From contig JAPDQM010000004.1 in the NCBI GenBank assembly GCA_034505795.1, forward strand, positions 348-64,347: DNA of 64,000 nt, given 5' to 3'. Source of the stretch: Candidatus Zhuqueibacterota bacterium (GTDB lineage Bacteria > Zhuqueibacterota > Zhuqueibacteria > Thermofontimicrobiales > Thermofontimicrobiaceae). Positions 1-50,614 of the stretch are shown here, one piece after another. Under the pieces are notes generated by a model. The model did no database searches. It worked only from the letters and a program-made list of their open reading frames with translations, and was not told the origin of the DNA. Each line of letters begins with the position of its first letter. Position 1 is the first letter of the stretch. Made by a program: the position numbers and the translations under genes.

Positions 1-2778
1 AGCTTTGACATGAAAGACAAACACGCCAAAAGCAACCTCCTGATCATTGTAGTTCCAGAGATTCCACGCCTCAACCGATGGCCCGCGATAGCCAGAGCTG
101 CCGGGTTCATGCTTAAGTATCTGCACCAGTTCACCGGAAGTAGTAAAGATTCTGATCTCGCACTTCTCGGGCAGGTTATGGAATTGGAGTTCCTTAATCC
201 AGGGCAGCGTTTCGTAAGCTGACGTCACAACGTACGGATTAGGAATGACCGTGATATAATCCAGGTCTTTCTTCGTGGCGCCCGCCGTCGTCGAAGGACT
301 GGTTTTAATTTCATAAATATCCTCTGCGGTAAGCGGCTTTCTGGTGAAGATCTTCGCCACGTCGCCGGTCTGAGGAACGATGCTGATATCTTCATAGGTG
401 GTATCTTCGCCCACGATAACCATCTTTGGCGGCGGCGCCGTCAGGATGATCGACCAAGTAAATTTGAATGCCCCGTTGATATTCTCACGAAGGGTCATTT
501 TATCGCCGCTGGACCATTTATTCTTCAGTTCAGCAGTAGTATCAGTCGGTGAAGGAACCAGGATGAAATCCAATTTCTGATTGGTCGTCACATTGACAAT
601 CTCGAAAGGAACGGGGATTTTTGGCCCAAAGGCGGTATCGCCGGCTGCGGTGAAGCGAACTTCATAATCGCAGGCGATCGGATTACCCGAATGCGTCATT
701 TGAATACTGTAGTTAGTCGTAGCCGTGTCATTTGTCGTCACCGAATGCCAGTATGATCGCTGAGGATCAAAAGCTATCGCCTCTTCATCGACCACAAACA
801 GACGCAGACCATCAAAAGATGGAACGTATTCCTCGCCGCCGAGCAATGTACTGCGTTGAATAATTGTATCATTTTTCGCCACATCAAACACGGAGAAGGC
901 TTTGTCACTACCGCTGCCGTTGATCAAAATTTTATAGGAGTTTTGGACCATCGCTGATGGATCCAAAATTTCTGGCAGGATGCTGGCCGTGGAGTTCCCC
1001 TGTAAATGCAACAGATCGGCTTTGCCACTGTGAAAACCTGCAGCAGGTTTCTGCGGAATGATGCGCACCGTATTATCCCCTGGCTTGTTGGGGTCAGATA
1101 CCTGGGGGTTTTCCATGGGTGGAATGACCAGGCTGCCCGACACATCATCGGCATCGTAGGCGCATACGGCATACCAATACTCCACGCCATTTTTCAGATT
1201 GCGATCGACAAACTTGTGAAAGAGTCCCGTATCATCGCCCAAATGGAAATAGGGATTGGCCGGGCTGGCACCGACAACGCCATTGTTCAGGTCACATTGT
1301 GCCAGCGGAACATAGCCTACCAGAGCGCCGACGGCATTGTTGATCGGATCACCCCAGGTCAGGCCGCGATCCGTCGAGCGATAGATGCGATAGCCTTCAA
1401 AGCGGTTGTTGCCTGTGAGCGGGTCGATGGAAAATTCAGAGGGCGCTGCATCCCAATATAGAATTACCGTCTGATCGCCAGCGACGGCCCGCACGTTCGG
1501 CTGCACCGGCGGAATCGCTGTTTTGTAGTTTTTATCATACAGCAGTTGACACAATGTCGCATTGGCCAGCAAATCGGCCTTGTTGACGCCAAAAATATTA
1601 GCAAAGGTAAAAGTCACCGTCTGCCCCGGTGCCAGATCGAACGGACCAGAGGCATGCACGGAGGTAATATCGGGACCGTAAGTATTTGGTGTCTGAGTCC
1701 AATCGCCAGCATGGGGTGTTACATTATGAATTCTCTCAATGCCAGATGCCATGCGATCGTAAACATCTGCCTGGGTGGGGAGCGCAAGAAAATCCGTGTA
1801 AGTGGCAATTGCCAGCGTGGTCAACCCCAGCTCCTTGCCATCTTTTCCCTTTGGCGTTTCCAGCATCTTTAATCCCTGCCAGGCCACTTTTTTTTCAAGA
1901 TAGCCGGCCGCTTTATCATCACCATCCCAGATGTAAAGAAAATTTCCCAGAATCGGATCTTCTTTCACCGGAATGAATTTCGCATAATCATCTTCCCATT
2001 CGTTATTTCCTTCCTCAGGGCAATCCATATCGGTATGTACGCCGACGTAGCAGTCTTTGATCGTATCTGTGCCGGTGTTGGTAATGTAGAATTTGAACAC
2101 AATCATATCCTCGGCCAACACGCTTGACCATTGCATGGCGCGACCAAAGGTTTTCAGATGGAGCGGGGTCGGCTGCTGACAGGTAGGATCATCATCCACC
2201 GCCATCCAGATGCCTTCGGCATCGGCAGCAACTTCACCAGTTTCATATACGCCAGGGAACCCTAACGATCCTACAGGACCTACATCCGCCGGCCAGGTTG
2301 CAGCCCAGGAGTTGGGCTTATTGGACATCGCCAAACCATTTTCGCCAATACCGGAATCATAGCCCGGCAACGGCTCATAATGATTTTCATTGTTGGTTTC
2401 GTAGCAACCCAGCGCCGCGTTGGAAACTCGCTTCTGGCCATTCACAATGCCCCCCACCATCAATGCTTCACACCATTGATACGTGATGCCAGAGCCGATC
2501 GGATACTCAAAGGTCAACATTTCGCGGCTATACCCCAGCCGATTGTTATTGGCAATTTCCAGGCCGATCTTGCCAACATCGAAGCGACCATATTTGCGAT
2601 CGTTGAAACCGCCCGGCTTCACCAATTTGGCTTTTTTAATATCAATGCCCTGTGCTTGCCGCAGCGATTGATAATATTCCCATTTGGTCATTCCCTTTTT
2701 GGCCTGGGCCTGCAACACTTGCAATGCACCAAGGAGCAGGCTTAAAGCCAAAATCAGGAACACTATTTTCCTAAGCAT
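1..2778 (-). CDS. Secreted partner protein of the upstream TonB-dependent transporter, long variant. The C-terminus runs off the window (>=926 aa). Signal peptide, FN3-like module and divergent T9SS-like C-terminal beta-sandwich.
   Basis: Absent from the ORF track because it has no in-window stop. My own translation of the minus frame is open from ATG 2776-2778 (GGAGG at 2787-2791) down to base 1. N-terminus MLRKIVFLILALSLLLGALQVLQAQA. FN3-like segment PPVQPNVRAVAGDQTVILYWDAAP..FEGYRIYRS. C-terminus ITVIPNPYVV..LQFHNLPEKCEIRIFTTSGELVQILKHE, with the same layout as ORFs 9911..11908, 30462..32591, 38331..40445 and 45313..47388. Plus-strand track ORFs here are short antisense shadows. Confidence 0.8.
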   Translation of the reverse strand, partial: MLRKIVFLILALSLLLGALQVLQAQAKKGMTKWEYYQSLRQAQGIDIKKAKLVKPGGFNDRKYGRFDVGKIGLEIANNNRLGYSREMLTFEYPIGSGITYQWCEALMVGGIVNGQKRVSNAALGCYETNNENHYEPLPGYDSGIGENGLAMSNKPNSWAATWPADVGPVGSLGFPGVYETGEVAADAEGIWMAVDDDPTCQQPTPLHLKTFGRAMQWSSVLAEDMIVFKFYITNTGTDTIKDCYVGVHTDMDCPEEGNNEWEDDYAKFIPVKEDPILGNFLYIWDGDDKAAGYLEKKVAWQGLKMLETPKGKDGKELGLTTLAIATYTDFLALPTQADVYDRMASGIERIHNVTPHAGDWTQTPNTYGPDITSVHASGPFDLAPGQTVTFTFANIFGVNKADLLANATLCQLLYDKNYKTAIPPVQPNVRAVAGDQTVILYWDAAPSEFSIDPLTGNNRFEGYRIYRSTDRGLTWGDPINNAVGALVGYVPLAQCDLNNGVVGASPANPYFHLGDDTGLFHKFVDRNLKNGVEYWYAVCAYDADDVSGSLVIPPMENPQVSDPNKPGDNTVRIIPQKPAAGFHSGKADLLHLQGNSTASILPEILDPSAMVQNSYKILINGSGSDKAFSVFDVAKNDTIIQRSTLLGGEEYVPSFDGLRLFVVDEEAIAFDPQRSYWHSVTTNDTATTNYSIQMTHSGNPIACDYEVRFTAAGDTAFGPKIPVPFEIVNVTTNQKLDFILVPSPTDTTAELKNKWSSGDKMTLRENINGAFKFTWSIILTAPPPKMVIVGEDTTYEDISIVPQTGDVAKIFTRKPLTAEDIYEIKTSPSTTAGATKKDLDYITVIPNPYVVTSAYETLPWIKELQFHNLPEKCEIRIFTTSGELVQILKHEPGSSGYRGPSVEAWNLWNYNDQEVAFGVFVFHVKA

Positions 2779-2820
2779 AATATGTTCCTCCTCGCTGTTT
2801 AAACTCTTTGACTTTATGGA

Positions 2821-5601
2821 TTAGAAACCAACACTGAACCCAAGCTGCAATACCCTTGGGGGACCCCAATAATAGGGTATAGTCACCCAATCTTTAGAAT
2901 AGTCCCAGTTCGCCGAGACATCGGGTTTGCCAGTCGAGCCGTTCACCGTATAAACATTCTTTTTATTGAACAAATTCTGAACATCGGCATAAAGGGTAAA
3001 ATCCAAACCATACCATTTATAAATTTTAGACGCACGCAGGTCCACCGTCATCGTCCACGGCTGTCGGGCACTATTGGGTTCGTCGATGCGCAGGCCCCGA
3101 GCGCTTAACGGAGTATAAGGCAAGCCGCTGCCATAGTTGCCAACAAAATTCATCTGCCAATTGCCCGGCTTGCCAATATCGAGCATAAAATTAACAGTGT
3201 GAGTCTGATCCCAATCCATGATAATCGTTTTTTTCGGCGGATAGGTCTTATTCACCGAAAAGCTGTACCAATCGTTATAGCTATCCGTCACGTCGTTGGC
3301 GTTGCCTTCTGCTCGCGATAAGGTGTAATTGATCTGGCCACCAAAATAATTAGAGAAGCGCTTTTTTAGCGTAATCTCGACCCCTTTGGCGTTGGCATAG
3401 TCTTGATTGATCAATCGGTGATATTGGACTGGCACCGCCTGATAGCGGCGGAAAGTGGTATAATCATAGATATTTTTATAATAGAACGTGACATCAAACG
3501 CAATATCATCAGCCAATTTGGTTTCGATCCCCAGCTCGTAGGCAATCGTTTTTTCGGGCTTTAGATTGGCGTTACCAAGCTGCGTATAGATGCCATTGAT
3601 CGACATATTCGGAAATGGATAAACCGGATCATCCATGTTTTCAGTTAAGAACAAATAGGAATATTGGGGTATTTGATAAAAATGGCCATAGGCAAAATGT
3701 AGCACCGCCTTGTCCATGATCGGGTGAGCGAAACCCAACCGCGGACTTACGTACAGCTTCTTCTCAGCATTCACCAGATTCTTGCGCAACTTGCCGGTCA
3801 ACGGATCGATGACTTCCTCTGCCGTCGGCTTATGCGGATCGACAATATATTTGGCGCGAGTATTCATGTAATCCAATCGCAAGCCGGCATTGACCACGAT
3901 GCCCAGGTCATCCAATTCCATTTTATCCTGCAAATAGGCCGAGCCTTCAATGGGGCGATGGTCGTATTTCTGAACATCGGGCACCGCCAGATATGGACCA
4001 TACACGTAATGATATTGAAGATGGGTCTCCTTTAACTCAACGCCCAATTTGATCTGATGCACTTTGGTGATTTGGCTGGTCACGTCGAATTTGCCGTTCA
4101 CAATGGTATTTTTTCGATCCTCCCAGGTGGCGCCGCCGCCAGAAGTCCAGGTCGAATCTTCAGCATCCCAGAAAACTGAATCAAATTCGTATTCCTGATC
4201 TGCCGGGGAGATATTCGCCATACCGGTATAGACGCCGTCCTCGTTGAGAATCTGCCATTCCCCATTCTCATCCTGCATGCTAAAAAATTCTGACGCTTTG
4301 TAGCGGTAATAGGCCCGTGCCGAATAAAAGACGGATGATTTCACGGTGTAAAAAGTACTGGGGCCCAATTGATGCGTCAAAGTCCCATTCAGCATCAGAT
4401 TATCATCGAAGTTCGTGCCGGTATTTTGGGGGACATATTTGTTGGTGTGAGAGTAATTTTTGAATCGCTTTTTTCCGCCAACTGCGCCTAAAGTCAACTT
4501 AATTGAACTCAACGGTTTCAATACCAGTTTGGCATTGGCCCGGCGCTCTTTTTGGTACGGTTGACCGGTCCAGCCCAGATAGGTATCGGTATCAAAGGCA
4601 TCACCGGCGATGAAAAAGGTGTTGCCACTGCCTAGGAAGGGAATTGGGCCACTGAAATCCAATTCGGTCCGAAACTCATTGAAATCGGATTCTTTCTTGG
4701 TAACCGTCTTCCAATACTTGGGATCGTAAACATTCTGTCCCGGTACGGTTTGGGCATTATTGCTGGCCGTCACCAGTTGGCCGGTGTTATCCACCCAGCG
4801 GCCATACTCATCGAGATATTTGTAGAGATAACGATAGGTATGCGGATTGACGAATTTATCGGTAAAAAATCGCACGCGACCGGAATATTTGCTGCCTCCC
4901 TCCTTCGTCACAATATTCAGCACGCCGGACATGGCCTCGCCATATTCCGCATTGAACGTCCCAGTCAGTACCGCCAACTCTGAGATACCCACATTGGCCA
5001 CATCGCTGCCCATGCCTCCCATCAGCGGATCTTCGACATAGAAGCCATCTATCATGTACGACAGTTCGTTCCTTCTGCCGCCACGGACGTTGAATTCCCG
5101 GTTCAAACCCGTGCCGCTTTCCACAAACCCCGGCGTCGTTACCAACACTTCCTGGAACGTAGCCACCGGCATTCGGTCGATCTGTTCGCTGGTGGTGACG
5201 GTCGACGATGAAGTCACATCTTTTTCGATCAACGGTCGCTCGGCCACCACTTCCACCACTTCACCCTCAATAACTGTGGGCTCCATCTGAAAATCCACCT
5301 TGGTGGTCAGGTCAATGATTACCTGAACATCCGTTTTGACGATAGCTTTATAGCCCATCATCATGGCTTTCAGGCGATATTTGCCTGGTGGCACATTGAT
5401 CATGAAATAATAGCCGTTGCCATCGGCGGCCGCGCCCAGCGTTGTTCCTTCAATGATGACACTAGCCCCTGCCAATGGCGCTCCGCTGGTCTTGTCCTTG
5501 ATAACACCGGCAATTTTGCCCGTCGTTCCACTATAAACGGATATGGCCGAAAGCAGGAACAAAACTAACAGCAGAGCAACAAAATTGAACTTGCTGTTCA
5601 T
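2821..5601 (-). CDS. TonB-dependent transporter with N-terminal CarboxypepD_reg-like domain (short subfamily, 926 aa)
   Basis: Track ORF 2821..5676 trimmed to the internal ATG at 5599-5601, which is preceded by AGGAGG. Signal peptide MNSKFNFVALLLVLFLLSAISVYS. CarboxypepD_reg-like TGKIAGVIKD..GKYRLKAMMMGY. Plug motifs FNVRGGRRNE..IDG..LNIVTKEG. Long beta-rich C-terminal region ending in an aromatic residue (..FSVGF). Confidence 0.9.
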   Translation of the reverse strand: MNSKFNFVALLLVLFLLSAISVYSGTTGKIAGVIKDKTSGAPLAGASVIIEGTTLGAAADGNGYYFMINVPPGKYRLKAMMMGYKAIVKTDVQVIIDLTTKVDFQMEPTVIEGEVVEVVAERPLIEKDVTSSSTVTTSEQIDRMPVATFQEVLVTTPGFVESGTGLNREFNVRGGRRNELSYMIDGFYVEDPLMGGMGSDVANVGISELAVLTGTFNAEYGEAMSGVLNIVTKEGGSKYSGRVRFFTDKFVNPHTYRYLYKYLDEYGRWVDNTGQLVTASNNAQTVPGQNVYDPKYWKTVTKKESDFNEFRTELDFSGPIPFLGSGNTFFIAGDAFDTDTYLGWTGQPYQKERRANAKLVLKPLSSIKLTLGAVGGKKRFKNYSHTNKYVPQNTGTNFDDNLMLNGTLTHQLGPSTFYTVKSSVFYSARAYYRYKASEFFSMQDENGEWQILNEDGVYTGMANISPADQEYEFDSVFWDAEDSTWTSGGGATWEDRKNTIVNGKFDVTSQITKVHQIKLGVELKETHLQYHYVYGPYLAVPDVQKYDHRPIEGSAYLQDKMELDDLGIVVNAGLRLDYMNTRAKYIVDPHKPTAEEVIDPLTGKLRKNLVNAEKKLYVSPRLGFAHPIMDKAVLHFAYGHFYQIPQYSYLFLTENMDDPVYPFPNMSINGIYTQLGNANLKPEKTIAYELGIETKLADDIAFDVTFYYKNIYDYTTFRRYQAVPVQYHRLINQDYANAKGVEITLKKRFSNYFGGQINYTLSRAEGNANDVTDSYNDWYSFSVNKTYPPKKTIIMDWDQTHTVNFMLDIGKPGNWQMNFVGNYGSGLPYTPLSARGLRIDEPNSARQPWTMTVDLRASKIYKWYGLDFTLYADVQNLFNKKNVYTVNGSTGKPDVSANWDYSKDWVTIPYYWGPPRVLQLGFSVGF

Positions 5602-6037: not shown

Positions 6038-8722
6038 CTATTTGACCAGCAGCATCCGTTTGGAAATTTGCTGATGTCCGATTCGAAGCACATACAAATA
6101 AACGCCGCTGGTAACCCGTTGGCCGGTGTTATCCGTGCCGTCCCACTGCACCGCATATTGTCCAGGCGCCACCGTTCGATCGACCAGGGTTTTGATCTCC
6201 TCGCCCCGCAAATTGAATACCGCCAACGTCACATGCTCAGTTTTCGGCACGCTGTAGTTGATCGTGGTCGTCGGATTGAAGGGGTTGGGATAGTTCTGAT
6301 CCAGCACAAAATCTGTCGGCTTTGGCTGAACCGGATGCTCGGCCACGCGGGTGACCTGATGTTCGAATCGTAGCACCTTGCCACCATAGGTAAACACATA
6401 GCCAAAGTCTTTGTTCAGGAATAAGCCGCTAACGTAGTCATCCGGATCCAACTCGGCTGGCGTATTGATCTGTCCCCAGGTTGCACCCAGGTCAGTAGTG
6501 TAAAACACACCAAGGTCATCCAGACCAATGATGATATCGGAATTGGGAATGGCGACCACGCTATTGACATAGCTATCGGTGGAGGCCACGGGATTATCTG
6601 TGGACGACCAGGTTTCGCCGCCATCCGTGCTATTGATCACATAGCCGCCACGCGCAGCTAGCATGCCGTTGTTCTCATCACTAAAAGCCAGCGATCGTGG
6701 ATAGTTGGGAATAATTTCGACCGGGATCGTGAAGCCTTCCCAGGTCACACCCAGATCAAATGAGCGAAACACAAAGGAAGCATTATATTCCATGTTGGTG
6801 GCACTGCACCAAACTTTAGGACCCACGTTGCATGCGGCCGTGCCCCAGGTATAGTAGGCATAAGCAGCGCCCAGGAAATCGACGCCAGTGATCTGGGTCC
6901 AGGTTTCGCCCTTGTCCGTGGATCGGACGAAATACATATTGCCGTTCGGTTCAAAATCACCGAAAGCAACGGCAGTATTCGCATCGAGCACGCGGAGACC
7001 GTCGAACCATCCTGGAGCAATGACGCTGATCATGTAGGAATGCTTTTCCACCCAGGTTGCGCCGCCGTCGGTTGTTTTATAAATTTTGCCTTCGGCATCC
7101 GCCACCAGTGCCGTATTGGCATCAAAGGCATCCATTTGCGCAGCTCGACCGGGAATAGGAGTCGCATTATGAGTGAAGGTCTTGCCACCATCGACTGAGC
7201 GGAACACATAAGTTTGTCGTGCGGTGCCATTCACCCCACAGAACCAGATGGTTTGCCCATTATCCAGAATTCGGCCTGGCTTGAACAACAAGCCAGTTGG
7301 TGGCTGCCCATTTAGCAAAACTTCTGGGGCAACGATCATGTTGTCGAATGTCATGGGCTTTGGACCAGCATAATCCAGCACCACAATCGGCTTGGTACCG
7401 AGGTTCGGAAATACGCCCGCATCAGTGCTTGAGGTATAGAGCACTTCCATTTCCGGATCATCATCTACATTGGCGATATTGACCACGGTCCAGATGCCAC
7501 CATCGGCGTACATCGAATCGATCATGGCAAATTCGTAGTTGGCGGGATTGGTGATGTCGCCCCCGCGATAAGCCAGGCGGAAGATCGCTGCATTGGGCGT
7601 CGATGCTCGGGAACCAAACACAAAATCCAGATGACCATCGCCATCGATGTCACCGGACGCGCCGCCCCAGGGGCCACGTGCGCCGCTGGGCCAATATTTC
7701 GACATATTGACCAGTTCGGTTCGCTTCAGCGTGTCCGCATTTTCTTGCAACAAATAAATGCCTTTATAGGCATCATTACCCCAGTCGTAAACCGCGCAGA
7801 TGATCTCTTTGACGCCATCGTTGTTTAAATCCACCACCTGGGACGATTGCACCGGAGAACCACCCGCCATAGGCAGCAACGCATCATACTGCCACGCATT
7901 GCCATCCCACGTAAATTTGGTGATTTCGTTTTCGCAGAAGCTATAAACATGCGGCCCGATGACAGCCACATCCCATTTGTTCTGCGCCGTTCCCGATTTC
8001 AAGTTAAAATCAAGACCGCTGACTTCTAACTTCCAGGTCTCGGAGCCATCCCCATTATCCGGGATGTTGCTCACCGACACCACGCCGCAGAAATAGCCGG
8101 CACCCGATTTGCCCGTACGATCGGCAAACACCAGTTCCTCGGTGCCATCGTTATCGGGATCGGCGATCACCCAACGCATGGGACGAATATTCAAATTATT
8201 ATCGGAAGCAATGGTCCATTTGGCATTTGGCAGATAGTTGCCAGTGCCATCGGGCACGCCCATTTCATCGCTGCCGTCGCCTTTTGATTCAAAAACCAGG
8301 ATCCGTGGAGGATTTTCATTGCCAGCCTCGAGAAAGTTGACTGGCCCCCAATACAGTTCCGGCTTGCCATCTTTATCCAGATCGCCCAGGGCAAAGCAGG
8401 GCCAGGTGTTCTGCTTGGGAATATTAGCGGTCGCCTTCCAGACCACCACCCAATTGTCGCCTTCTCGTTCTAATTTGTAGATCCGCGGGATCAATTCAGT
8501 GGGGGTATCATTCCAGTTGTCATTGACAAGGAAAATCTCAACTTTGCCATCTTTGTCAATGTCCGTACCAGAAATCATGTTTCCGGTGCCGCCATTATTG
8601 AGATTCGCTTCAGGGATTGGAATCTCAGCTTTGCGCACAAACTGCTGCGCGTAGTTCGCAGTAGTGATAAACAGCACTGCCACCGCCAGCAGCAATAGGA
8701 TTGTAACGATTTTACCTCTCAT
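6038..8722 (-). CDS. Secreted FG-GAP/VCBS-repeat plus BNR/Asp-box beta-propeller protein with canonical T9SS C-terminal sorting domain
   Basis: Signal peptide MRGKIVTILLLLAVAVLFITTANYAQQ with AGGAGG upstream. Repeated DxDxDG motifs (DIDKDGKVEIF, GDLDKDGKPEL, ADPDNDGTEEL, VDLNNDGVKEI, GDIDGDGHLDF). Six Asp-box-like motifs (SVDGGKTF, TTDGGATW, STDKGETW, SFDLGVTW, STDGGETW, TTDLGATW). C-terminus LDQNYPNPFNPTTTINYSVP..VAVFNLRGEEIKTLV..SGVYLYVL..LLVK. Confidence 0.85.
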   Translation of the reverse strand: MRGKIVTILLLLAVAVLFITTANYAQQFVRKAEIPIPEANLNNGGTGNMISGTDIDKDGKVEIFLVNDNWNDTPTELIPRIYKLEREGDNWVVVWKATANIPKQNTWPCFALGDLDKDGKPELYWGPVNFLEAGNENPPRILVFESKGDGSDEMGVPDGTGNYLPNAKWTIASDNNLNIRPMRWVIADPDNDGTEELVFADRTGKSGAGYFCGVVSVSNIPDNGDGSETWKLEVSGLDFNLKSGTAQNKWDVAVIGPHVYSFCENEITKFTWDGNAWQYDALLPMAGGSPVQSSQVVDLNNDGVKEIICAVYDWGNDAYKGIYLLQENADTLKRTELVNMSKYWPSGARGPWGGASGDIDGDGHLDFVFGSRASTPNAAIFRLAYRGGDITNPANYEFAMIDSMYADGGIWTVVNIANVDDDPEMEVLYTSSTDAGVFPNLGTKPIVVLDYAGPKPMTFDNMIVAPEVLLNGQPPTGLLFKPGRILDNGQTIWFCGVNGTARQTYVFRSVDGGKTFTHNATPIPGRAAQMDAFDANTALVADAEGKIYKTTDGGATWVEKHSYMISVIAPGWFDGLRVLDANTAVAFGDFEPNGNMYFVRSTDKGETWTQITGVDFLGAAYAYYTWGTAACNVGPKVWCSATNMEYNASFVFRSFDLGVTWEGFTIPVEIIPNYPRSLAFSDENNGMLAARGGYVINSTDGGETWSSTDNPVASTDSYVNSVVAIPNSDIIIGLDDLGVFYTTDLGATWGQINTPAELDPDDYVSGLFLNKDFGYVFTYGGKVLRFEHQVTRVAEHPVQPKPTDFVLDQNYPNPFNPTTTINYSVPKTEHVTLAVFNLRGEEIKTLVDRTVAPGQYAVQWDGTDNTGQRVTSGVYLYVLRIGHQQISKRMLLVK

Positions 8723-8824: not shown

Positions 8825-9817
8825 TTAAAATGTCAAAGCTAATGAGAATCGATGCACGCTCTTCAGCACGCCCAAATCGGCAAACGAATAATCGATCACC
8901 GCACCCAGGGCGCCCAATGTCGTCAGATCGACACCAGTGCCGAAGGTGAAACCGCCTTCATCAAGATTAAACCGATAGCCACCCCGGAGAAAGAACATAT
9001 TATTGAAACAATACTCCATCCCCCAATTGTACTGTTCGAGATTGTTATTCGGGTGAATCATATCGGCGGCGGTGGTGATTTTATTCGTCGGGGTATCCAG
9101 CAGACTCATGCTAATCCCAATCCGGAAATTGATGGGCAGGGAATAGGTCTCGAACGACTTCGGTTTGTTTACATCCACCGATTTAGGATCACTATAATCG
9201 ATGTAGCTTCCGCTGAATTTCACCTCCGGTCCGAAATGGAGGATCGACATGCCCAGGTTCAGACCATGAAAGCCGGTGCGATAGAGAGTGCCCATATCGA
9301 GCGCCCAGGTGGTATAACCATAGTCCAGATATTTTTCGCGTACCAGTTTGGTGGTGATACCAATGGACAGACGATCGGTCAAAAACCGAGCGTAGGAAAG
9401 GCCGAGGGCAAAATTGGTGATACTAAAATTTTCACCTGTGCCTTCGGGCATAGCCACCGTCGTCATTTCCATATCACCGGTCATGAGATAGGCGCTGCTA
9501 ATGGCAAACGTGCCGATATTGCCCAAATCCATGGAAAAGGCCAATGAACCGATGGAAATATCCGCCGGCCAGACGGTATAGGCTGTATACAGGTTTCGTT
9601 TTTGACTGCCAACCAGACCGGCTGGATTCCAAAAAGCGGAACCCGCATCGTTGGTCAGCGCAGTATAGGCTTCACCCATGGCCGTACCGCGTCCACCCAC
9701 GCCGATCTCCAGGAACTGAGCCACCGCCGTGCCCACCGGCGCAAAGTCCTGCCCATGCACTGCTGTACTCAGGATGAGGGCTACCATTGCGATCAGTAGA
9801 ATGTTTTTTGTATTCAT
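8825..9817 (-). CDS. PorV/PorQ-like outer-membrane beta-barrel protein
   Basis: Signal peptide, then the family-typical N-terminal motif PVGTAVAQFLEIGVGGRGTAMGEAYTALTNDAGSAFWNPAGLVG. Alternating beta-strand pattern and terminal ..SLALTF. Paralogs at 37266..38291 and 44241..45290. Confidence 0.75.
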   Translation of the reverse strand: MNTKNILLIAMVALILSTAVHGQDFAPVGTAVAQFLEIGVGGRGTAMGEAYTALTNDAGSAFWNPAGLVGSQKRNLYTAYTVWPADISIGSLAFSMDLGNIGTFAISSAYLMTGDMEMTTVAMPEGTGENFSITNFALGLSYARFLTDRLSIGITTKLVREKYLDYGYTTWALDMGTLYRTGFHGLNLGMSILHFGPEVKFSGSYIDYSDPKSVDVNKPKSFETYSLPINFRIGISMSLLDTPTNKITTAADMIHPNNNLEQYNWGMEYCFNNMFFLRGGYRFNLDEGGFTFGTGVDLTTLGALGAVIDYSFADLGVLKSVHRFSLALTF

Positions 9818-20592: not shown

Positions 20593-20605
20593 TTTGCTTT
20601 TTTTG

Positions 20606-20632
20606 GTAACGCGATTTGCCAAATTGCGTTAC
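20606..20632. repeat. Single copy of the family-1 27-bp palindrome (GTAACGCGATTTGCCAAATTGCGTTAC)
   Basis: One mismatch to the copies at 18.5 kb. 45 nt after the stop at 20677 and 13 nt upstream of the ATG at 20592. Confidence 0.9.
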
Positions 20633-43500: not shown

Positions 43501-43675
43501 AGATGCCAGCAGCCGCGCCCATCATCGTTCCTTCAATAACGATATTCACTCCGGGCAAGGGTTGACTGGTCTCTTCATCGATAACCACACCGGCAATTTT
43601 TCCGGTCACCCCTGCCAGGGCCGCGGTCGCAGCAATGACGATGATTGCAATGAGGAAAAGAAACAATCTCTTCAT
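40532..43675 (-). CDS. TonB-dependent transporter with CarboxypepD_reg-like domain (long subfamily, 1047 aa)
   Basis: Signal peptide MKRLFLFLIAIIVIAATAALA with GGAAGGGAG upstream. VTGKIAGVVID..GTYTLKATMMGY. Plug motifs GIRGSGADQAMFMVDG..VNVVTKEG. Conserved post-plug insert. C-terminus ..WGITINYKF. Confidence 0.9.
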   Translation of the reverse strand: MKRLFLFLIAIIVIAATAALAGVTGKIAGVVIDEETSQPLPGVNIVIEGTMMGAAAGISGNYVILNVPPGTYTLKATMMGYSAVTMTNVRVYIDQTTTVDFKMKAEVLAGEEVTVVAERPVVEKDVAASKKNISTDQIATLPVTTVNEALGLQAGITSGLGIRGSGADQAMFMVDGVVLRDERDNKPVTSVPLSAVQEVSVQTGGFNAEYQNVRSGVVNVVTKEGLSDRYTATMTMKYRPPAPKHFGISPYDPNSYWLRPYLDPAVCWTGTQNGNWDLYTQRQYPKFDGWNTVSQRTLQDDDPNNDLTPEAAQRLFLWEHRKQGDIDQPDYNVDGGFGGPVPFISKYLGNLRFFASARQEQDMYLIELSRKALTNRSGMLKLTSDISEAMKLTVMGLYGEIYGVSSSFSGGTSYMETPEDVASTMITGSFTTPSRIYTNIYFSPTAQFYNTISAKFTHLINPTTFYEVQLKRSGKIYRTEPGRYRDYSKTYEIFPGYLIDERPFGFEEGPVFGTGDGNFIMGGPISVSRDYSEISTYTARADLVSQIDSWNQLKSGIEFIHDRFDMAFGQVNKYLPEGNTWTYIKQNPFRGSLYIQDKIEVGGFISSLGLIMEYSNPNGKWFDVDMYDRNFFKFRPEDESQYKTKSVKGRFTVSPRLAISHPITNNSKLYFNYGHYRQMPTSERYYRNQRNLTEKMEYFGDPTIPLAKTVSYELGYDQAIMSDYLLHLSAYYKDISDQEYWIRIISDIKNFDYYKLTNNSYEDIRGFEFDLTKSTGRWFTGNLNYEYRVGTSGYFGKREVHDDPAAQRDFDLKNPKQSKPRPRPRFKAYFDIHTPSKIGPEFMGQQILSDWHLNLLGNWTAGLWDTWNPNNVPGIEYNVQWKSDYNIDLKLSKTFVFKDLDVKFFMDIFNVFNFKHFSRLSYFDTFDRNYYLKSLHLPRNIADKLKYENIPGNDQLGDYRKTGVEYVPMEWVADYTQFANPNPRVIYYDANTQKYMEFVDNNWRQVEQKRIDKILEDKAYIDMPNQTYFTFLNPRTIFWGITINYKF

Positions 43676-44240: not shown

Positions 44241-45290
44241 CTATAATGCGAAATGCACTGAAAACCGATGCACATCATTAAAGGCACCAAAGGGAGTATA
44301 GGCATAATCCAACGCCAGCAGATGATTGCGATAGCTTTGCTGGAAGCCGACCCCGGTGCAGAAACCGTATTCGTCGTTTGGAGCAGAATATCCCAGCCGA
44401 ATGGCAAAGGTCTTGAAAAAGAGGTATTCCAATCCAATGTTAACTTGCTCCTGATAATCCCGTGGATGCGTGGCATCGATACTCAGCAGCAGCGAATTGT
44501 TTTCTTTGCCCAAAACGGGATAAATATCCAGCAAATCCATCGCGACTCCAATACGGAAAATCAATGGCAACTGAAAGCCTTCATCCTCATAGGTCACTTC
44601 TTTTGAGAAGTTGCGGATGCACATGCCGATATTCAAACTCCGGAAGCCTGTGTTATAGAGTACTCCAAAGTCAAAGGCAAAAACAGAGGCCGAATAGCTT
44701 TTGCGGGTGTAGTTGCCATCCGCGGCGGCACCGCTCAGGCCGATGATGCTGCTGCCCATGTCCTGAACAACATATTTTATATTGCCACCCACCGAGAATT
44801 TGCTGGAGAGCGCTTTGGAGTATCCGATGCCAAATGCCATGGCGCTGGGACTGAAGTTACCGGTTTCGACATAACCTAATTCATTGGCGGGATCGTCATC
44901 ACGAATCGTGCCGATAAATGTACCATAATCCACCGAAATCGCCGTAAACCCAAAAACGCCGTAACGGCCATTGGCGGGACTGAAGGCTGCACTGCCATAT
45001 AAATATTGAATGTCCGCAATCCAGTCAATTCGGCCGAACGAAAAATCGGCAACGTTCGACATTTTGGCCATGCCAGAGGGATTGAAAAACATCGATGTGG
45101 AATAGCCTTCCACCGCGGTAATGGCGTCAGCCAGTCCGCTGATTCGAGCATCGGTGGTCACATTGAGAAACTTCATTCCAGTTTGTGCCAGTTTCTGCAA
45201 CTTTTGACCGAAGCCTGCAGGAGCCAGCCAGCACAAAAGCAGCCAGCCCAGCACGATTGATTGCATATATTTTTTCATAGGTCCATCCAT
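44241..45290 (-). CDS. PorV/PorQ-like outer-membrane beta-barrel protein
   Basis: Signal peptide (the start could instead be the ATG at 45278, MKKYMQSIVLGWLLL). KLAQTGMKFLNVTTDARISGLADAITAVEGYSTSMFFNPSGMA. C-terminus ..FSVHFAL. Starts 22 nt after the partner-gene stop. Close paralog of 37266..38291. Confidence 0.75.
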   Translation of the reverse strand: MDGPMKKYMQSIVLGWLLLCWLAPAGFGQKLQKLAQTGMKFLNVTTDARISGLADAITAVEGYSTSMFFNPSGMAKMSNVADFSFGRIDWIADIQYLYGSAAFSPANGRYGVFGFTAISVDYGTFIGTIRDDDPANELGYVETGNFSPSAMAFGIGYSKALSSKFSVGGNIKYVVQDMGSSIIGLSGAAADGNYTRKSYSASVFAFDFGVLYNTGFRSLNIGMCIRNFSKEVTYEDEGFQLPLIFRIGVAMDLLDIYPVLGKENNSLLLSIDATHPRDYQEQVNIGLEYLFFKTFAIRLGYSAPNDEYGFCTGVGFQQSYRNHLLALDYAYTPFGAFNDVHRFSVHFAL

Positions 45291-45312
45291 TCTGCTTTGT
45301 GATGTGAATTCA

Positions 45313-47388
45313 TTAGCGAATGATTAAGAATTTTACAACCTGACTCTGACCAGTGACATTGTCCGTCACCACAGCAATATAGACGCCACTAACGACGATC
45401 TGCTGATACTCGGTGGTGCAGGACCAATAGGCATCGCCACTGCCATCGGTATGCTCGATGGTTTTGATCAATTCCCCGGTTTCGGTATAAATTTTGATCG
45501 TACATTGCCCGGGAATATTGTAAAATGCCAATTTATCACTTTCCCCTGGGAAGAGCAGGCGATTCGGATCGGCCGAGATGTTGTAGGGATTCGGCACTAC
45601 CCGAATCTGGCTCAACGATTCGCCAGCCGGACGTTTCAGATTGGTCGGATCATAAGTTTGGGTGTAGTACCGGCTACTGCGCAAAATGTCTGCAGGGATA
45701 TTAAGCGTTGGATCAGCAGGAATTTCGTTGCCGGTGGAAACAATATAATAAAAATAGGAAACACCCCGCTCCAAAACGGTATCATTGAAACTCCGCTCAT
45801 CGGGTCCGGCGCGATGGATCAATTGGTAGGTGCTGTCGTACTGGCCTTTGGCCCGATAAATTTCAAAACCCGTTCTTTCTGGGTCATTTTCTTCATAAAC
45901 TTCCCAATTCAGCATGATGCGATCGCCACCGCCATTGACTCGAAAAACACTGGGCGGCTTTGGTGGTTGTTGAATGGCATATCCGGATTGATAATTGGCA
46001 ATCGCACGTCGGAACGTTTGAAAGAGCGAGTCCCGGCCACTCAGCACCCATTCGTTTTTCGTTTTGGCGCTAATCTGGCCGGTCTTGAATTGCTTGCCAA
46101 TCTCAATGCACTTTTCGCGGCTTAAACCCGCGGCTGCCTCCGCCCAAACGATGCGAACGCTCTCGCCGGGACGCAAGGTGTAAGGTCCATAGCCATTGCA
46201 AGCAGAAAATCCACCGGGAGTCCCCAATGCTGGATCGCCGGTGGGCTCGGCGAAGTTGCCCGACGGTTCCACTTTCCAGGCATGCCGCGGCGACATGTGG
46301 CCTTTGGACATCCAGCCGTATTCGGATTCCATGCGCGCCACATTGTAGGGATCGTTCTGCGAGGTATTGGGCGCATCGGAAGATTCGTATGTCGTAGTGG
46401 ATGGCTGGCCCGGATCATCGGTCGGGTCCGTGGCCGAGCGGTCGGCATGCAGCGTGACTACACCAATGAACTGTGCTGAGCCAAGCCGACCAACCGTATC
46501 CGCCGAACCAATGTATCCAGCCGATCCCGCCGGATTCCAGATCGGCGCGCCTAAATTGTCATATTGCGTAAATGGCGGATATTTGCCATGCCAACCAAAT
46601 TGCGCCCGGAATTGTTCATTGGGAGGATCGGGCATCACACCGTCGCCTCGCGCATCCAGCATCAAATTAATGCCCCAGCCTGTCGCATTGCCAATAAGAT
46701 AACGCGTTTCACGGCATACCGCCCAACGAAATTGGAAAAAGAAATAAACATCCTCCAGCGTCTGATTCGGCAATTCAATCTCCGGATCATCATCGACATT
46801 ACCCGTGTTGGTAAAGGTGTACTCACAGATGATATAATTATCATGATAGGGATGGCTGAATTGCATGATCTTGCGGGTGGTGGTAATGCCGATCTGGTTA
46901 TTGGTGATATTCAAAATCATGCGATCGGCTTTCAGCGTTGGATCGACACCATCATTATCCACCCGCTTTTCGTAGGTCTCGATTAAGTCAACTGTCGTTT
47001 TGGGCGGTTCAAAGCGGCTATACATCTCGAATTTCACCGGGAAAAATTCATTGGCGCCGGTCACTCGTGGACCGACATGCACCACTTTATACGGGTAAAA
47101 GACGCCTTTTTCATCGGTGAAATTCTTGCAGCCGATCCAGAAGGCCTTGGCTGCTTGCATGTCCTGATAACGGTAGATACCCTCCCATTGCATCCCGCAC
47201 TGTTGCACTTTCAAATTCCCATGCTCGATTTCGGAACCGATTTCCGAATACCAGTTATGCAGCGAGCCAACAGCCAGCCATTTGACTGCAAATTGAGCGT
47301 TGGCCAGAAACGGGTTCAGCGCGAAAATTATAACGCCGATAAGCACGCCCCATCGCATCCGTTTCTTTTCAAAAATTTGTTTATTCAT
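45313..47388 (-). CDS. Secreted partner protein of the upstream TBDT (691 aa): unassigned N-terminal region, FN3-like module, divergent T9SS-like C-terminal domain
   Basis: Signal peptide ..RWGVLIGVIIFALNPFLANAQ. Family motifs WLAVGSLHNWYS, YIICEYTFTNTGNVDDDPEIEL, HADRSATDPTDDPGQP, GPYTLRPGESVRIVWAEAAAGL. FN3-like PPSVFRVNGGGDRIMLNWEV..GFEIYRA..VSYFYYIVST. C-terminus IRVVPNPYNISA..LAFYNIPGQCTIKIYTETGELIKTIEHTDGSGDAYW..SGVYIAVV..KFLIIR. Confidence 0.85.
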   Translation of the reverse strand: MNKQIFEKKRMRWGVLIGVIIFALNPFLANAQFAVKWLAVGSLHNWYSEIGSEIEHGNLKVQQCGMQWEGIYRYQDMQAAKAFWIGCKNFTDEKGVFYPYKVVHVGPRVTGANEFFPVKFEMYSRFEPPKTTVDLIETYEKRVDNDGVDPTLKADRMILNITNNQIGITTTRKIMQFSHPYHDNYIICEYTFTNTGNVDDDPEIELPNQTLEDVYFFFQFRWAVCRETRYLIGNATGWGINLMLDARGDGVMPDPPNEQFRAQFGWHGKYPPFTQYDNLGAPIWNPAGSAGYIGSADTVGRLGSAQFIGVVTLHADRSATDPTDDPGQPSTTTYESSDAPNTSQNDPYNVARMESEYGWMSKGHMSPRHAWKVEPSGNFAEPTGDPALGTPGGFSACNGYGPYTLRPGESVRIVWAEAAAGLSREKCIEIGKQFKTGQISAKTKNEWVLSGRDSLFQTFRRAIANYQSGYAIQQPPKPPSVFRVNGGGDRIMLNWEVYEENDPERTGFEIYRAKGQYDSTYQLIHRAGPDERSFNDTVLERGVSYFYYIVSTGNEIPADPTLNIPADILRSSRYYTQTYDPTNLKRPAGESLSQIRVVPNPYNISADPNRLLFPGESDKLAFYNIPGQCTIKIYTETGELIKTIEHTDGSGDAYWSCTTEYQQIVVSGVYIAVVTDNVTGQSQVVKFLIIR

Positions 47389-47560: not shown

Positions 47561-50500
47561 TTATTTGATGTCGAACGACATTCGAATTCCCCAGAAAATA
47601 TCCCGCGGATCAAGGAACGTGAAGAACTGCTGATTCGGCATGTCGATATAGGCTTTCGTCTCCAAAATTCGTTTCTTGCGCGCTTCATCAGGATCGTTGG
47701 GATCGTAGGGTTCATACGGTACAGTCCGATAATCTCCCGGTCGGTCATTGCCAGGGATATTGCCATAACCCAATTCGTCGCCGATCTTGGCCGGCAGATG
47801 TAACGACTTCATATAGGCGATATAATCGGGAGAATCCACGAAGCCGTATTGCGTCATATACTTGAAATTGAACACGTTCGAAATATCCACAAAGAACTCG
47901 ACATTGGCCGTGCCAATGCGGAAATTTCGGCTGAATTTAATATTAACATTATAGTAATCTTTCCATTGCACATTATTTTCAATGCCAGGAATCGAGCCGC
48001 CGCCGGTCCAGGTAAAATGATAACCCGACCGCCAGGTAGCTAACACATTCAGCCGCCAATCCGCCAATGGATAAATATTCAGCAATTTTGGGCCAAATTG
48101 TTGTGGCATAAAGAAATCAAAATCGGCCCGGGCATACGGCCTTGGCACCGGTTTTTCCTGATAACTGCGCCAGGTTTCTGATTCAATACGTCGCATCACA
48201 GCGGGATTATTGGAGTAAGTGCTAAAGCCAAAATTGCCAGCCGTCGTGACTTCATAGGTGTAGTTGACAAATCCCTGGATCCAGTTGCCGCGATTTTTAC
48301 GCAACGTCACCTCAAAACCGCGCGTGTCCTGATAGTTATAGGGCTTGCTAACCGAATAATTCACTGTTCCATCATCTCGTTGATAGGTCACCGCACGCGG
48401 CTGCAACGAAGAATCCCGGTAGTAACCGGCAACCCGCACCAAAAACTGATTGAATAGATTGTGCTCATACCCCAACTCATAGGCTACGGTTCTGGGCAGT
48501 GGATTGTTGGGGCTGGCGATCCGCATCACATATTTGGTAGCGGTTTCGCGACGCAGCAGATAGAGATTTTCCGGTGTTGGCAACTGTCGAAAATGTCCAT
48601 AATTAAAGTAAAGTTTGCTATTGATAGTGATGGGGAAGGCAATACCCAGCCGGGGGCTCAAGTTAAAGATGCGCTTGGTGGGTTCTTTATCCAGCAGGGT
48701 ATCAATGCCCGTAGAATATTTGGCCGAAAATGCCTTGTTCCAGGGATCATCGTACGCGTACCACTCGCCGCCGGCATGGGAATAATCAAGCCGTAAGCCC
48801 ACATTAGCAATCATCCCCTCGAATTCCAATTTATCCTGTAGATAGATCGCGGCGCGAACCGGATAGGTGTGCCATTTTGATTGAGAGCGGCCGCTGGGCA
48901 GAAAAATGTCCACTGACGCATAATTCACATTATTATCCGTGTAGATAAATTCAACGCCACCCTTCAAATTGTTGAAGCGATCAAGCTGACTGGTCATATC
49001 GAAGCGGGTGGTATAGACGGTCACGCGGCTGCTATCGCGCGAGTTGCTCATTCCCACTCCCATGCGCAGGCCCACAATGCCGGTGCTGGGTGCGGGCTGA
49101 TAGCCAAAAGGCGCTTCATCGATATAATAGTTGTCGCCAAATTTGTAGACCCGGGAGGTATCTCGTGGAGTGCCGGGATTGGTATTGTAACTGGATTGAA
49201 AACGTTGCAGGGTGACTTCATAAAAAGTTTTCGGACTGAGCACATGGGTAAATTTGGCGCCAAAGTTGGTCCGAGTGACGGTAGACGGGCACCAATAATC
49301 TGTGCCGTACATTCTGCCATCGATGTATTTTGGGCCATTGCTCAGCGCACTGGCAATGCTCCAGGAATCACTAAAAATCCCAGGCTCACCGGAGTTATTA
49401 TCATTGGTACCACTCTGCCTTCCAATGAGGCCGTCGATCATCAGTTTCATGCCTTCGCCAATGTCCGAGGTAATTTTCAGTTGTCCATTGTAATCGCGAT
49501 AGGCATCGCGCGACAGCGGCACGATGTACATATCTCGCGCATCGCGATACGAAGCAAAGAACCGAAGATTGCCCAACGGTTCGCTGATAAATGGCACCGG
49601 CCCACCAAAACTCATGTCAACATTATAATCGGGCTTGGAGATGTCCAATTTGCGCCGATGCTCCCACAGGAACACCTGTTGCGCGGCTGCTGGAGTCAAA
49701 TCGTTATCCGGATTATCATCTTTCAAGGTTTTTGCTGAAACCGCATTCCACCCTTCAAATTCAACATATTGCTTTTGCGTGTACTCATCCCAGGCTCCAT
49801 TTTTGGTGCCGGTCCAACAAACCGCATTATCCACATACGGCCGAATCCAGTAGGAATCCCAGGACGAGGGAGAATGGCCAAAATGCTTCTTTGCCGGCGG
49901 GCTGTAACGCGTCAGCAAACCGAAGTGATACTGGTCTTTTTTGCCTTCTTTGGTGACTACGTGAATCAGACCCGCGCGCATGTTGCCGTATTCAGCATTA
50001 AAGCCACCGGTTTGAATTTGGATTTCATCGATGGAGGTGTAGCTTATCGCCGTATAGGGCTGATTGTTTCGCTCATCTCGAAGCGTAAAGCCGTTCACCA
50101 TAAACGCAGTCTGATCGGCGCCACCGCCACGAATGGTCAATCCCTGCACGCCAGCTTCCAGAGCTACCACACTGGCGACACTGACTACCGGCAGCGATTG
50201 GATCTCTTTGGCATTCAGGTTGGCCTGGCTCGCTGAAACATCTTTTTGCACCACTGGCCGTTCAGCCACAACCTGCACTTCCTCGCCCATGATGGCCTGC
50301 AATTTCATTTTGAAATCTACAGTCGTAGTAAGATCAATGCTGACACGCACATTGGCTGCAGTTAAATTTGCATAGCCCATCATGGTGGCTTTCAACGTAT
50401 AGGTGCCAGGTGGAACGTTTAAAATGACATAATATCCTTTGAGATCAGCCGCGGCCCCCATCATCGTGCCTTCGATAACGATGTTAGCGCCTGGCAGGGG

Positions 50501-50614
50501 CTGGCCATTTTCAGAATCGGTGACCACACCAGCTATCTTTCCGGTCACGCCAGCCATTATCGGTTGAGCTGCTAACAGCAGCAGGACACTGAAACAAAGA
50601 ATCAACTTTCTCAT
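47561..50614 (-). CDS. TonB-dependent transporter with CarboxypepD_reg-like domain (long subfamily, 1017 aa)
   Basis: Signal peptide MRKLILCFSVLLLLAAQPIMA. VTGKIAGVVTD..GTYTLKATMMGY. Plug motifs TIRGGGADQTAFMVNG..IHVVTKEG. Conserved post-plug insert ..PYVDNAVCWTGTKNGAWDEYTQKQY.. C-terminus ..IFWGIRMSFDIK. Confidence 0.9.
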   Translation of the reverse strand: MRKLILCFSVLLLLAAQPIMAGVTGKIAGVVTDSENGQPLPGANIVIEGTMMGAAADLKGYYVILNVPPGTYTLKATMMGYANLTAANVRVSIDLTTTVDFKMKLQAIMGEEVQVVAERPVVQKDVSASQANLNAKEIQSLPVVSVASVVALEAGVQGLTIRGGGADQTAFMVNGFTLRDERNNQPYTAISYTSIDEIQIQTGGFNAEYGNMRAGLIHVVTKEGKKDQYHFGLLTRYSPPAKKHFGHSPSSWDSYWIRPYVDNAVCWTGTKNGAWDEYTQKQYVEFEGWNAVSAKTLKDDNPDNDLTPAAAQQVFLWEHRRKLDISKPDYNVDMSFGGPVPFISEPLGNLRFFASYRDARDMYIVPLSRDAYRDYNGQLKITSDIGEGMKLMIDGLIGRQSGTNDNNSGEPGIFSDSWSIASALSNGPKYIDGRMYGTDYWCPSTVTRTNFGAKFTHVLSPKTFYEVTLQRFQSSYNTNPGTPRDTSRVYKFGDNYYIDEAPFGYQPAPSTGIVGLRMGVGMSNSRDSSRVTVYTTRFDMTSQLDRFNNLKGGVEFIYTDNNVNYASVDIFLPSGRSQSKWHTYPVRAAIYLQDKLEFEGMIANVGLRLDYSHAGGEWYAYDDPWNKAFSAKYSTGIDTLLDKEPTKRIFNLSPRLGIAFPITINSKLYFNYGHFRQLPTPENLYLLRRETATKYVMRIASPNNPLPRTVAYELGYEHNLFNQFLVRVAGYYRDSSLQPRAVTYQRDDGTVNYSVSKPYNYQDTRGFEVTLRKNRGNWIQGFVNYTYEVTTAGNFGFSTYSNNPAVMRRIESETWRSYQEKPVPRPYARADFDFFMPQQFGPKLLNIYPLADWRLNVLATWRSGYHFTWTGGGSIPGIENNVQWKDYYNVNIKFSRNFRIGTANVEFFVDISNVFNFKYMTQYGFVDSPDYIAYMKSLHLPAKIGDELGYGNIPGNDRPGDYRTVPYEPYDPNDPDEARKKRILETKAYIDMPNQQFFTFLDPRDIFWGIRMSFDIK

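Follow-up and report, generated by a model that had tools for sequence, protein, structure and literature searches.

Five transporter cassettes with a predicted type IX-secreted partner and PorV-like barrels: a candidate outer-membrane import module in a Candidatus Zhuqueibacterota genome

We analysed a stretch of 64,000 nucleotides (the window) from contig JAPDQM010000004.1 of a Candidatus Zhuqueibacterota bacterium, and describe here five gene cassettes on the minus strand of its positions 1-50614. Each cassette begins with the gene of a TonB-dependent transporter (T), which is followed by the gene of a secreted partner protein of about 700 amino acids (S). After S, a gene for an outer-membrane barrel of the PorV/PorQ family (V) is present in three of the pairs and a gene for a lipoprotein with a TIG domain and a propeller (I) in two; all coordinates are collected in Table 1. 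The fifteen open reading frames (ORFs) listed in a preliminary description of this DNA, which was made from the sequence alone, were all found on the minus strand at the coordinates given there, and the T-S gaps of 172, 86, 124, 26 and 42 nt that it reported were correct. The coordinates of T3, T4 and T5 correspond to internal ATG starts, and the longest ORFs for these three genes begin at 35814, 14832 and 5676.

The transporters and their secreted partners

Searches against Pfam matched the CarboxypepD_reg and Plug (PF07715) models in all five T proteins, and a TonB-box-like motif (GEEVxVVAERP) was found in each of them between the N-terminal domain and the plug. The barrel model PF00593 was matched by T4 and T5 only. 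T1-T3 share 27% identity with T5 over about 950 amino acids. The structure of T2 was predicted with AlphaFold2 (AF2) using 40 homologues as input, with a predicted local distance difference test score (pLDDT) of 83.5. In Foldseek this model matched PqqU, PirA, PfeA, FepA and BtuB with E values of 1e-22 to 1e-18 (best 4e-22), and the template modelling (TM) scores, normalised to the target, were 0.6-0.8 for PqqU, PfeA, FepA and BtuB. The SusC-like ButC ranked only 41st among the matches. Against the SusC/RagA model TIGR04056, which has a cut-off of 368 bits, the T proteins scored 49-59 bits and covered only model positions 2 to about 180, and T5 gave no match. The domains and the fold match of T2 agree with the earlier reading of T as a transporter made of CarboxypepD_reg, plug and barrel; T is a genuine TonB-dependent transporter and lies outside the SusC/RagA family. 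A highly conserved stretch of about 90 residues, partly helical and with invariant residues rich in W, P and D, was observed in T2 at residues ~240-329 (window 42689-42958) and in the same region of T1 and T3. In the model it comes after the Plug match and before the first strand of the barrel, and it could not be aligned to T4 or T5.

The S proteins had been described as one paralogous family. This was found to be correct for S1, S2 and S3, which are 38-42% identical in pairwise comparisons over the full length, whereas S4 and S5 are distant members only: S4 and S2 share 25% identity over 571 amino acids (S-profile E 5e-27), and S5 (profile E 3e-22) shares mainly the FN3 domain and the C-terminal domain (CTD) plus short colinear pieces of the N-terminal domain. 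In the AF2 model of S2 (53 sequences as input, pLDDT 89, predicted TM score 0.85), the signal peptide (residues 1-25) is followed by a beta-sandwich with a helical insert (~29-470), an FN3 domain (477-570) and a C-terminal beta-sandwich (597-704). The N-terminal beta-sandwich of about 440 amino acids is a new domain that is not covered by Pfam or NCBIfam, as no model matched it even when 53 family members were scanned at E <= 1; the S profile gave only a marginal Fn3 match among the PDB sequences. Weak signals were confined to the last ~80 residues of S and came from the PorZ C-terminus, Por_Secre_tail and CHU_C. The best Foldseek matches of the S2 model were N-terminal beta-sandwich domains, namely those of GH94 phosphorylases, GH116 and dextran dextrinase, with TM scores of 0.2-0.26, and PorZ (5m11) was also among the matches, its aligned region not having been inspected.

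The preliminary description had further proposed that the partner is not SusD-like. Our results agree with this, as the model is predominantly beta, SusD models of Pfam gave no match to S at E <= 0.01 or, with the 53 members, at E <= 1, and the SPI-type signal peptide of S is not accompanied by a conserved lipobox cysteine. The FN3-like module that had been noticed corresponds to residues 477-570 of S2, and our search for a well-characterised family that S might belong to returned none.

The C-terminus of S had been called sorting-domain-like, which was supported by profile comparison. With hhalign, the S CTD aligned to the window's five canonical type A CTDs of the secretion system of type IX (T9SS) with a probability of 88% (E 3e-6), in a register that brings the PNP, GxY and terminal K...R (K-x5-R) motifs together. 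Compared with type A, the S CTD contains an insertion of ~10 residues after PNP and, in S2 and S3, one of ~20 residues before the last strand. Lys699 is invariant in the S alignment; PorV is contacted by a conserved lysine at the C-terminus of type A CTDs (PMC10994853). The scores of S remained below the cut-offs of the type A models PF18962/TIGR04183, with an E value of 0.005 for S1 against TIGR04183 and matches in 2 of the 53 members. Likewise, the type B model CHU_C (PF13585; cut-off 27 bits) gave 18.5 bits for S2 and weak matches for 14 of the 53 members (best E 0.0013), all of them below the cut-off, and the PorZ model NF052228 gave 15-26 bits against a cut-off of 260, in the last ~80 residues only. 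We read the S CTD as a divergent relative of type A with two insertions. Because S has a signal peptide, no conserved lipobox and a CTD homologous to type A, we predict that it is routed by Sec and the T9SS. CTD matches were also obtained for six neighbouring proteins in the window, four of which reach the curated PF18962/TIGR04183 cut-off (including 15149-18265, 24565-27279 and 27496-28815); the proteins at 6038-8722 and 20677-23274 matched only the CTD-related FlgD_ig model. The T9SS core genes are absent from the window, and the CTD-bearing neighbours suggest that a T9SS is present in this genome.

Conserved gene order, subtype pairing and the PorV-like barrels

S2 has 1294 relatives at 56-86% identity, annotated as 'fibronectin' or 'hypothetical', in KSB1, Calditrichota, Marinimicrobia, WOR-3, Melioribacteraceae and Delongbacteria, candidate division KSB1 being the closest that is named and thus the probable origin of the window. 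The S profile search yielded 8429 clusters at 50% identity, 517 of them at E <= 1e-30, and at least 592 species-representative genomes encode an S relative, in phyla that include Ignavibacteria and Neomarinimicrobiota. ORFs were called in 83 related loci and compared with the window proteins. In 95 of 99 cases the gene immediately 5' of S was T, the median distance between the two being 18 nt; the adjacency is thus conserved across phyla and extends beyond this genome. V was the next recognised gene 3' of S in 81 of 92. The usual order was T2-S2-V-I-P-T3-S3, where P is a propeller protein without homology to I by BLASTP, and one genome each of Calditrichota and Melioribacteraceae, as well as a Marinimicrobia metagenome-assembled genome, showed the same order. 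A V4-type barrel gene followed S5-type genes in related loci. Mean identity to the window proteins was 56% for T, 57.5% for S, 52% for V and 38-39% for I and P, and the S N-domain is ~61% identical across phyla.

In 39 of the related loci (about half) a family of small lipoproteins was observed between S and V (for example L001:12151-12747 and L005:7748-8899). These proteins of 180-340 amino acids have a cysteine followed by an acidic stretch (e.g. CEEYQEEDF) and gave no Pfam match. The family is absent from the window and may be a further surface component of the module that we propose below.

When the T and S genes of the related loci were assigned to subtypes by their best hits, T2-S2 pairs were found 64 times, T3-S3 pairs 26 times and T1-S2 pairs 5 times, and the combinations T2-S3 and T3-S2 never occurred. 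From this strict pairing we conclude that T and S duplicated and diverged together, each pair as one unit, and this suggests that they are cognate partners. A scan of positions 28800-48000 for promoters and terminators gave counts that did not exceed the shuffled expectation, and we therefore make no claims on operons. A terminator-like hairpin is located at 32673-32688 (minus strand) inside the T3-S3 gap, and such sites are no more common here than in shuffled sequence.

The pairing and the adjacency also bear on a different explanation, which we hold to be possible although rather improbable: S may be an independent enzyme or adhesin of the cell surface, which the T9SS exports and V tethers and which is merely co-regulated with T. 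It would degrade or bind a polymer, and T would import the products without a stable T-S complex. The conservation of the S N-domain at enzyme-like levels fits this explanation, as does the presence of S away from any T. The N-domain and FN3 module occurs in T9SS cargo proteins of 1100-1600 amino acids (P0126, P0133, P0159, P0193, P0211 and P0213), where its fusion partner is either a right-handed beta-helix/DUF1565 or a BNR/sortilin propeller at the N-terminus and the CTD is a canonical one of type A (Por_Secre_tail), and in the WOR-3 locus L076 an S gene stands amid catabolic enzymes with no T. However, the T-S adjacency is near-universal and the genes are closely spaced, and strict co-diversification, as in the T and S subtypes, is seen more typically in partners that interact than in loosely co-regulated genes. 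As a separate observation, the propeller of the window protein 6038-8722 resembles the one that some of the long homologues carry as a fusion to the S module.

The V proteins were well above the cut-off of 90 bits for the PorV/PorQ family model NF033709, with 192.8 bits for V1, 201.4 for V2 and 215.7 for V4, and the earlier claim of PorV-like barrels was thereby confirmed at 193-216 bits. V2 also matched Flavobacterium johnsoniae PorV (6h3i_F) with an E value of 4e-8. The equivalog cut-offs were not reached, as the scores were 75-89 bits against PorV (NF033710; 250) and 82-101 bits against PorQ (NF033711; 220), and V is a separate branch of the PorV/PorQ family. A TIG domain and a propeller-like C-terminal domain were recognised in I2 as well as in I3, and each has a lipobox (LLGC / VSGC). 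The similarity to PorZ and PorQ could mean that S and V belong to the T9SS as accessory components, like the PorZ-PorQ attachment complex, and have no role in uptake, which we consider very unlikely. The PorZ C-terminus is indeed the only NCBIfam match of S, and the scores of V are slightly higher for PorQ than for PorV. However, the PorZ match includes the CTD only and is far under the cut-off, PorZ consists of two propellers whereas S is a beta-sandwich with FN3, and five diverged copies per genome, each of them linked to a transporter, are a poor fit to core machinery.

The type of CTD in S was associated with the presence of V. Three S homologues that carry a canonical CTD have no adjoining T or V (L076, L087 and L089). 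Two of these, L087 and L089, are loci of the long S-module proteins that were looked up, and neither T nor V adjoins there. In the WOR-3/Stahlbacteria orthologues L076 and L075 a canonical CTD takes the place of the variant, the contig of L075 stopping just past S. The variant CTD thus seems to go together with V, based on three homologues. Within the window, the CTDs of S3 and S2 are 75% identical and their N-domains 36%, and the CTD of S1, which has its own V1, is 60% identical to that of S2. Because S3 lacks its own V and its CTD is so similar to that of S2 despite the diverged N-domains, a single V apparently suffices for two S proteins, and V2 may be used by both S2 and S3. In the PorZ-PorQ pair, and for type B cargo with PorP/SprF, the cognate barrels have been proposed to keep the CTD uncleaved and to anchor the cargo (PMC10202324).

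These results also bear on the direction in which T works. T could function outward or as an assembly factor, exporting S or inserting it. Features of T that recall Oar-type transporters are the CarboxypepD_reg N-domain and the length of about 1000 amino acids, and the tight T-S linkage would fit such a role; the TonB-dependent barrel Oar of Myxococcus has reportedly been proposed to help export the protease PopC. We regard this role of T as highly improbable, as the export of S is already accounted for by its T9SS-type CTD and the PorV-family neighbour, and no Oar-type barrel model was among the Pfam matches of T1-T3 at E <= 0.01.

The proposed import module, its substrate and the neighbouring genes

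On balance, we consider it somewhat probable that each cassette encodes an outer-membrane nutrient-import module, in which S is exported by the T9SS, tethered by V and works with its cognate T. T would be a TonB-energised transporter of 22 strands. S would reach the periplasm by Sec and then cross the outer membrane by the T9SS with the help of its divergent CTD, which would probably be neither cleaved nor attached to lipopolysaccharide and would stay bound to the V of the cassette. V would in this way tether S at the cell surface, as PorQ does with PorZ and PorP/SprF with type B cargo. The tethered S would be positioned beside or atop its cognate T as a capture or processing partner, with a SusD-like gene position and role, and I, as well as the small lipoprotein of other lineages, would be accessory surface binders. 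The five cassettes would be specialised for different substrate forms. The preliminary description had proposed a transporter plus surface-receptor module with a partner different from SusD; this reading is supported, while the role of S as a lid or receptor, its tethering by V, its contact with T and the inward direction of transport are inferred.

With regard to the substrate, the genes between the cassettes encode T9SS cargo with GHL10, Amidase_3, Golvesin_C and BNR/FG-GAP domains. The GHL10 protein of the window matched Cwp19 (5oq2) with an E value of 2e-26, and Cwp19 is a peptidoglycan lytic transglycosylase (PMC6016235). GHL10 neighbours recur in other phyla, and SSF symporters and ROK kinases are recurrent in the flanks of other loci. 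In L076 (WOR-3 UBA3073, 2-17684) the S orthologue is located between an SSF symporter and NamZ, an exo-N-acetylmuramidase, together with two AmiA-like amidases, two GHL10 proteins, a GNAT protein, a BadF/BcrA-type (sugar-kinase-like) ATPase and an Amidase_3 protein, and there is neither a TonB-dependent transporter nor a PorV-like gene; it is an apparent peptidoglycan-salvage cluster. The T and S orthologues are ~56% identical across phyla, which would be explained by a substrate that is chemically constant everywhere, such as the peptidoglycan backbone. Our tentative candidates are therefore peptidoglycan fragments, that is, glycans or muropeptides freed by the secreted GHL10 and Amidase_3 proteins, although we believe that this assignment has a larger chance of being wrong than right.

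Several points weigh against the proposed module and its substrate. The contacts of S with T and with V are deduced from gene order and covariation only. The S N-domain is conserved like an enzyme, unlike the fast-evolving SusD lids, and S might be catalytic rather than a lid. The fold likeness of this domain to GH94, GH116 and dextran dextrinase was considered as a lead to function and set aside, as the match is too weak. Only three homologues underlie the association of the CTD with V, and neither T nor V is found near two S genes that carry the variant CTD (L054 and L073). Conservation of the CTD was also considered as a sign of retention at the surface and was found to be non-discriminating, since not only the S CTD but also the canonical CTDs of P and of the GHL10 orthologues exceed their protein bodies in conservation. 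The core locus of one Calditrichota genome has housekeeping neighbours only and no hydrolases, and the window contains no NamZ or MurQ. The GHL10 protein DogH is said to use starch, and hence not all GHL10 proteins are peptidoglycan enzymes. Because of the hydrolase-free Calditrichota locus and the GHL10 members with another activity, the assignment to peptidoglycan is weak.

The proposed module can be extended to a tripartite T-S-V machine that couples the T9SS to TonB-dependent import, in which a private PorV paralogue receives S from the T9SS translocon and docks it permanently as a lid that captures the substrate or as an enzyme of its cognate T, and in which T2-S2 and T3-S3 serve KSB1, Calditrichota, Marinimicrobia and Ignavibacteria as dedicated importers of peptidoglycan fragments (bacterial necromass). 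In this complete form the proposal is speculative, and we think it unlikely to be correct in all its parts.

Table 1. Positions of the cassette genes and of the genes between them in the window.
Feature	Position	Strand	Evidence
T1, TonB-dependent transporter: CarboxypepD_reg N-domain, TonB-box-like GEEVQVVAERP, plug, barrel	47561..50614	-	Pfam, paralogy, N-terminal sequence
S1, secreted partner made up of signal peptide, new beta-sandwich, FN3 and variant T9SS CTD	45313..47388	-	
V1, PorV/PorQ-family outer-membrane barrel	44241..45290	-	NF033709, 192.8 bits
T2, TonB-dependent transporter	40532..43675	-	AF2 pLDDT 83.5; Foldseek E down to 4e-22 against classical transporters
S2, secreted partner	38331..40445	-	AF2 model, pLDDT 89
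V2, PorV/PorQ-family barrel	37266..38291	-	NF033709, 201.4 bits; PorV 6h3i_F, E 4e-8
I2, lipoprotein, TIG/IPT domain and beta-propeller	36028..37215	-	
T3, TonB-dependent transporter	32716..35769	-	Pfam, paralogy
S3, secreted partner, without a V of its own	30462..32591	-	CTD 75% identical to S2 CTD
I3, TIG and propeller lipoprotein	29139..30335	-	
P, propeller protein, canonical type A CTD; comes after I in most related loci	27496..28815	-	
T9SS cargo, two Golvesin_C domains and canonical CTD, 904 aa	24565..27279	-	
PD40/TolB-like propeller protein	23339..24298	-	
T9SS cargo, Amidase_3 (N-acetylmuramoyl-L-alanine amidase), Big_5 and CTD	20677..23274	-	Pfam
Metallophosphoesterase with PQQ-like propeller	18673..20622	-	Pfam
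T9SS cargo, GHL10 domain (Cwp19 homologue), Big_5 and CTD	15149..18265	-	Pfam, PDB match
T4, TonB-dependent transporter, distant paralogue, PF00593 match	11935..14808	-	
S4, distant S-family member	9911..11908	-	Profile E 5e-27
V4, PorV/PorQ-family barrel	8825..9817	-	NF033709, 215.7 bits
T9SS cargo, FG-GAP, BNR/sortilin-like propeller and CTD, free-standing	6038..8722	-	Pfam
T5, TonB-dependent transporter, distant paralogue, PF00593 match	2821..5601	-	
S5, distant S-family member, truncated at its C-terminus where the window ends	1..2778	-	Profile E 3e-22

Divergently from T1, positions 51043-54255 of the plus strand encode a Fur-family regulator, FeoB and a DtxR/FeoA fusion. These neighbours could indicate that the cassettes serve the uptake of iron or metal chelates, and T4 and T5 match models of siderophore and haem receptors weakly. 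We find such a function hardly credible: the scores against the siderophore models are all far under the cut-offs, the Fur/Feo neighbourhood is not conserved in the other genomes examined, and the genes that recur beside the cassettes encode secreted hydrolases of glycans and peptidoglycan, SSF symporters and sugar kinases. Iron regulation of the cassettes was likewise rejected, as the Fur/Feo genes are not kept beside the cassettes elsewhere. Directly past the cassette array, a housekeeping cluster (rplQ, rpoA, rpsD ... secY) is located at 54422-60904 of the minus strand, and because of this cluster we place the array on the chromosome, adjoining a ribosomal-protein operon. No Rfam match was obtained anywhere in the window, and control of the transporters by a riboswitch was rejected on this basis. 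The Golvesin_C cargo protein at 24565-27279 (minus strand) has an N-terminal region of about 420 amino acids that matched no family and no PDB entry.

Relation to known systems

In the Fibrobacterota-Chlorobiota-Bacteroidota (FCB) superphylum, TonB-dependent uptake of large substrates is understood almost wholly through SusCD, in which the lid is a lipoprotein. Our analysis suggests a second solution beside SusCD, with a partner that the T9SS delivers and a PorV-like barrel of its own retains. The cassette occurs in at least 592 species-level genomes of abundant, mostly uncultured heterotrophs of sediment and ocean (KSB1, Calditrichota, Marinimicrobia, Ignavibacteria and WOR-3). If this solution is confirmed, PorV/PorQ paralogues gain a role outside the secretion machinery, and the S N-domain defines a new family of protein domains that comprises 8429 clusters at 50% identity. 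The cassette would then be a marker for a conserved nutrient niche in these phyla, possibly the recycling of peptidoglycan or necromass, and would offer a route to annotate thousands of genes that are now labelled 'fibronectin' or 'hypothetical protein'.

The cassettes resemble SusC/SusD (RagA/RagB) loci in having a transporter of ~1000 amino acids with a CarboxypepD_reg-like N-domain and, directly after it, the gene of a surface partner. As in SusCD loci, genes for more surface lipoproteins follow, here with a TIG-domain protein in the position of SusE or a surface glycan-binding protein, secreted hydrolases are encoded nearby, and the pairs are multiplied and diversified in one genome. Unlike SusC, T matches TIGR04056 over its first ~130-180 residues only and is no closer to ButC than to siderophore receptors. 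SusD is an alpha-helical tetratricopeptide-repeat lipoprotein, whereas S is all-beta with a signal peptide and a T9SS CTD. An additional barrel of the PorV family is included in the cassette, and T and S, at ~56% identity across phyla, differ from the rapidly diverging SusCD pairs.

Similarly to PorZ-PorQ and PorU-PorV, S is a predicted T9SS cargo with a type A-like CTD that would be retained and bound by a barrel of the PorV/PorQ family, and its CTD matches that of PorZ. However, the body of S is unrelated to the propellers of PorZ, V scores 75-101 bits against equivalog cut-offs of 220-250 and so differs from PorV and PorQ proper, and the S and V genes, unlike those of PorZ-PorQ, are adjacent, present in several copies and placed within transporter cassettes. 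The adjacency of a cargo gene with the gene of a private barrel is shared with type B cargo and PorP/SprF, such as SprB-SprF of Flavobacterium johnsoniae. The CTD of type B cargo is thought to remain uncleaved and the barrel to anchor the cargo (PMC10202324), and 14 of 53 S proteins weakly match CHU_C. The differences are that the barrel belongs here to the PorV/PorQ family by NCBIfam (PorP/SprF not being tested directly), that the S CTD aligns with the type A motifs, and that no link to a TonB-dependent transporter has been described for type B cargo.

The salvage of peptidoglycan and N-acetylmuramic acid (MurNAc) in Tannerella forsythia and Bacillus subtilis, with NamZ, amidases and MurK/MurQ, has its likeness in the L076 cluster and in the secreted GHL10 and Amidase_3 proteins of the window. 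In contrast to these pathways, the window has no NamZ/MurQ and the link consists of a gene neighbourhood in a minority of genomes; the literature searched describes no outer-membrane importer or S-like protein in MurNAc salvage. Nor did it contain a description of a cassette in which a TonB-dependent transporter is combined with a CTD-bearing partner and a paralogue of PorV/PorQ, including papers on the Caldithrix and Melioribacter genomes, an anammox-granule metagenome, the T9SS translocon structure and Cwp19, as well as reviews of the T9SS. The combination of two principles, the S N-domain family and the phylogenetic breadth thus appear to be undescribed; the two principles themselves, SusCD-type partnered transporters and the anchoring of T9SS cargo by cognate barrels, are already known.

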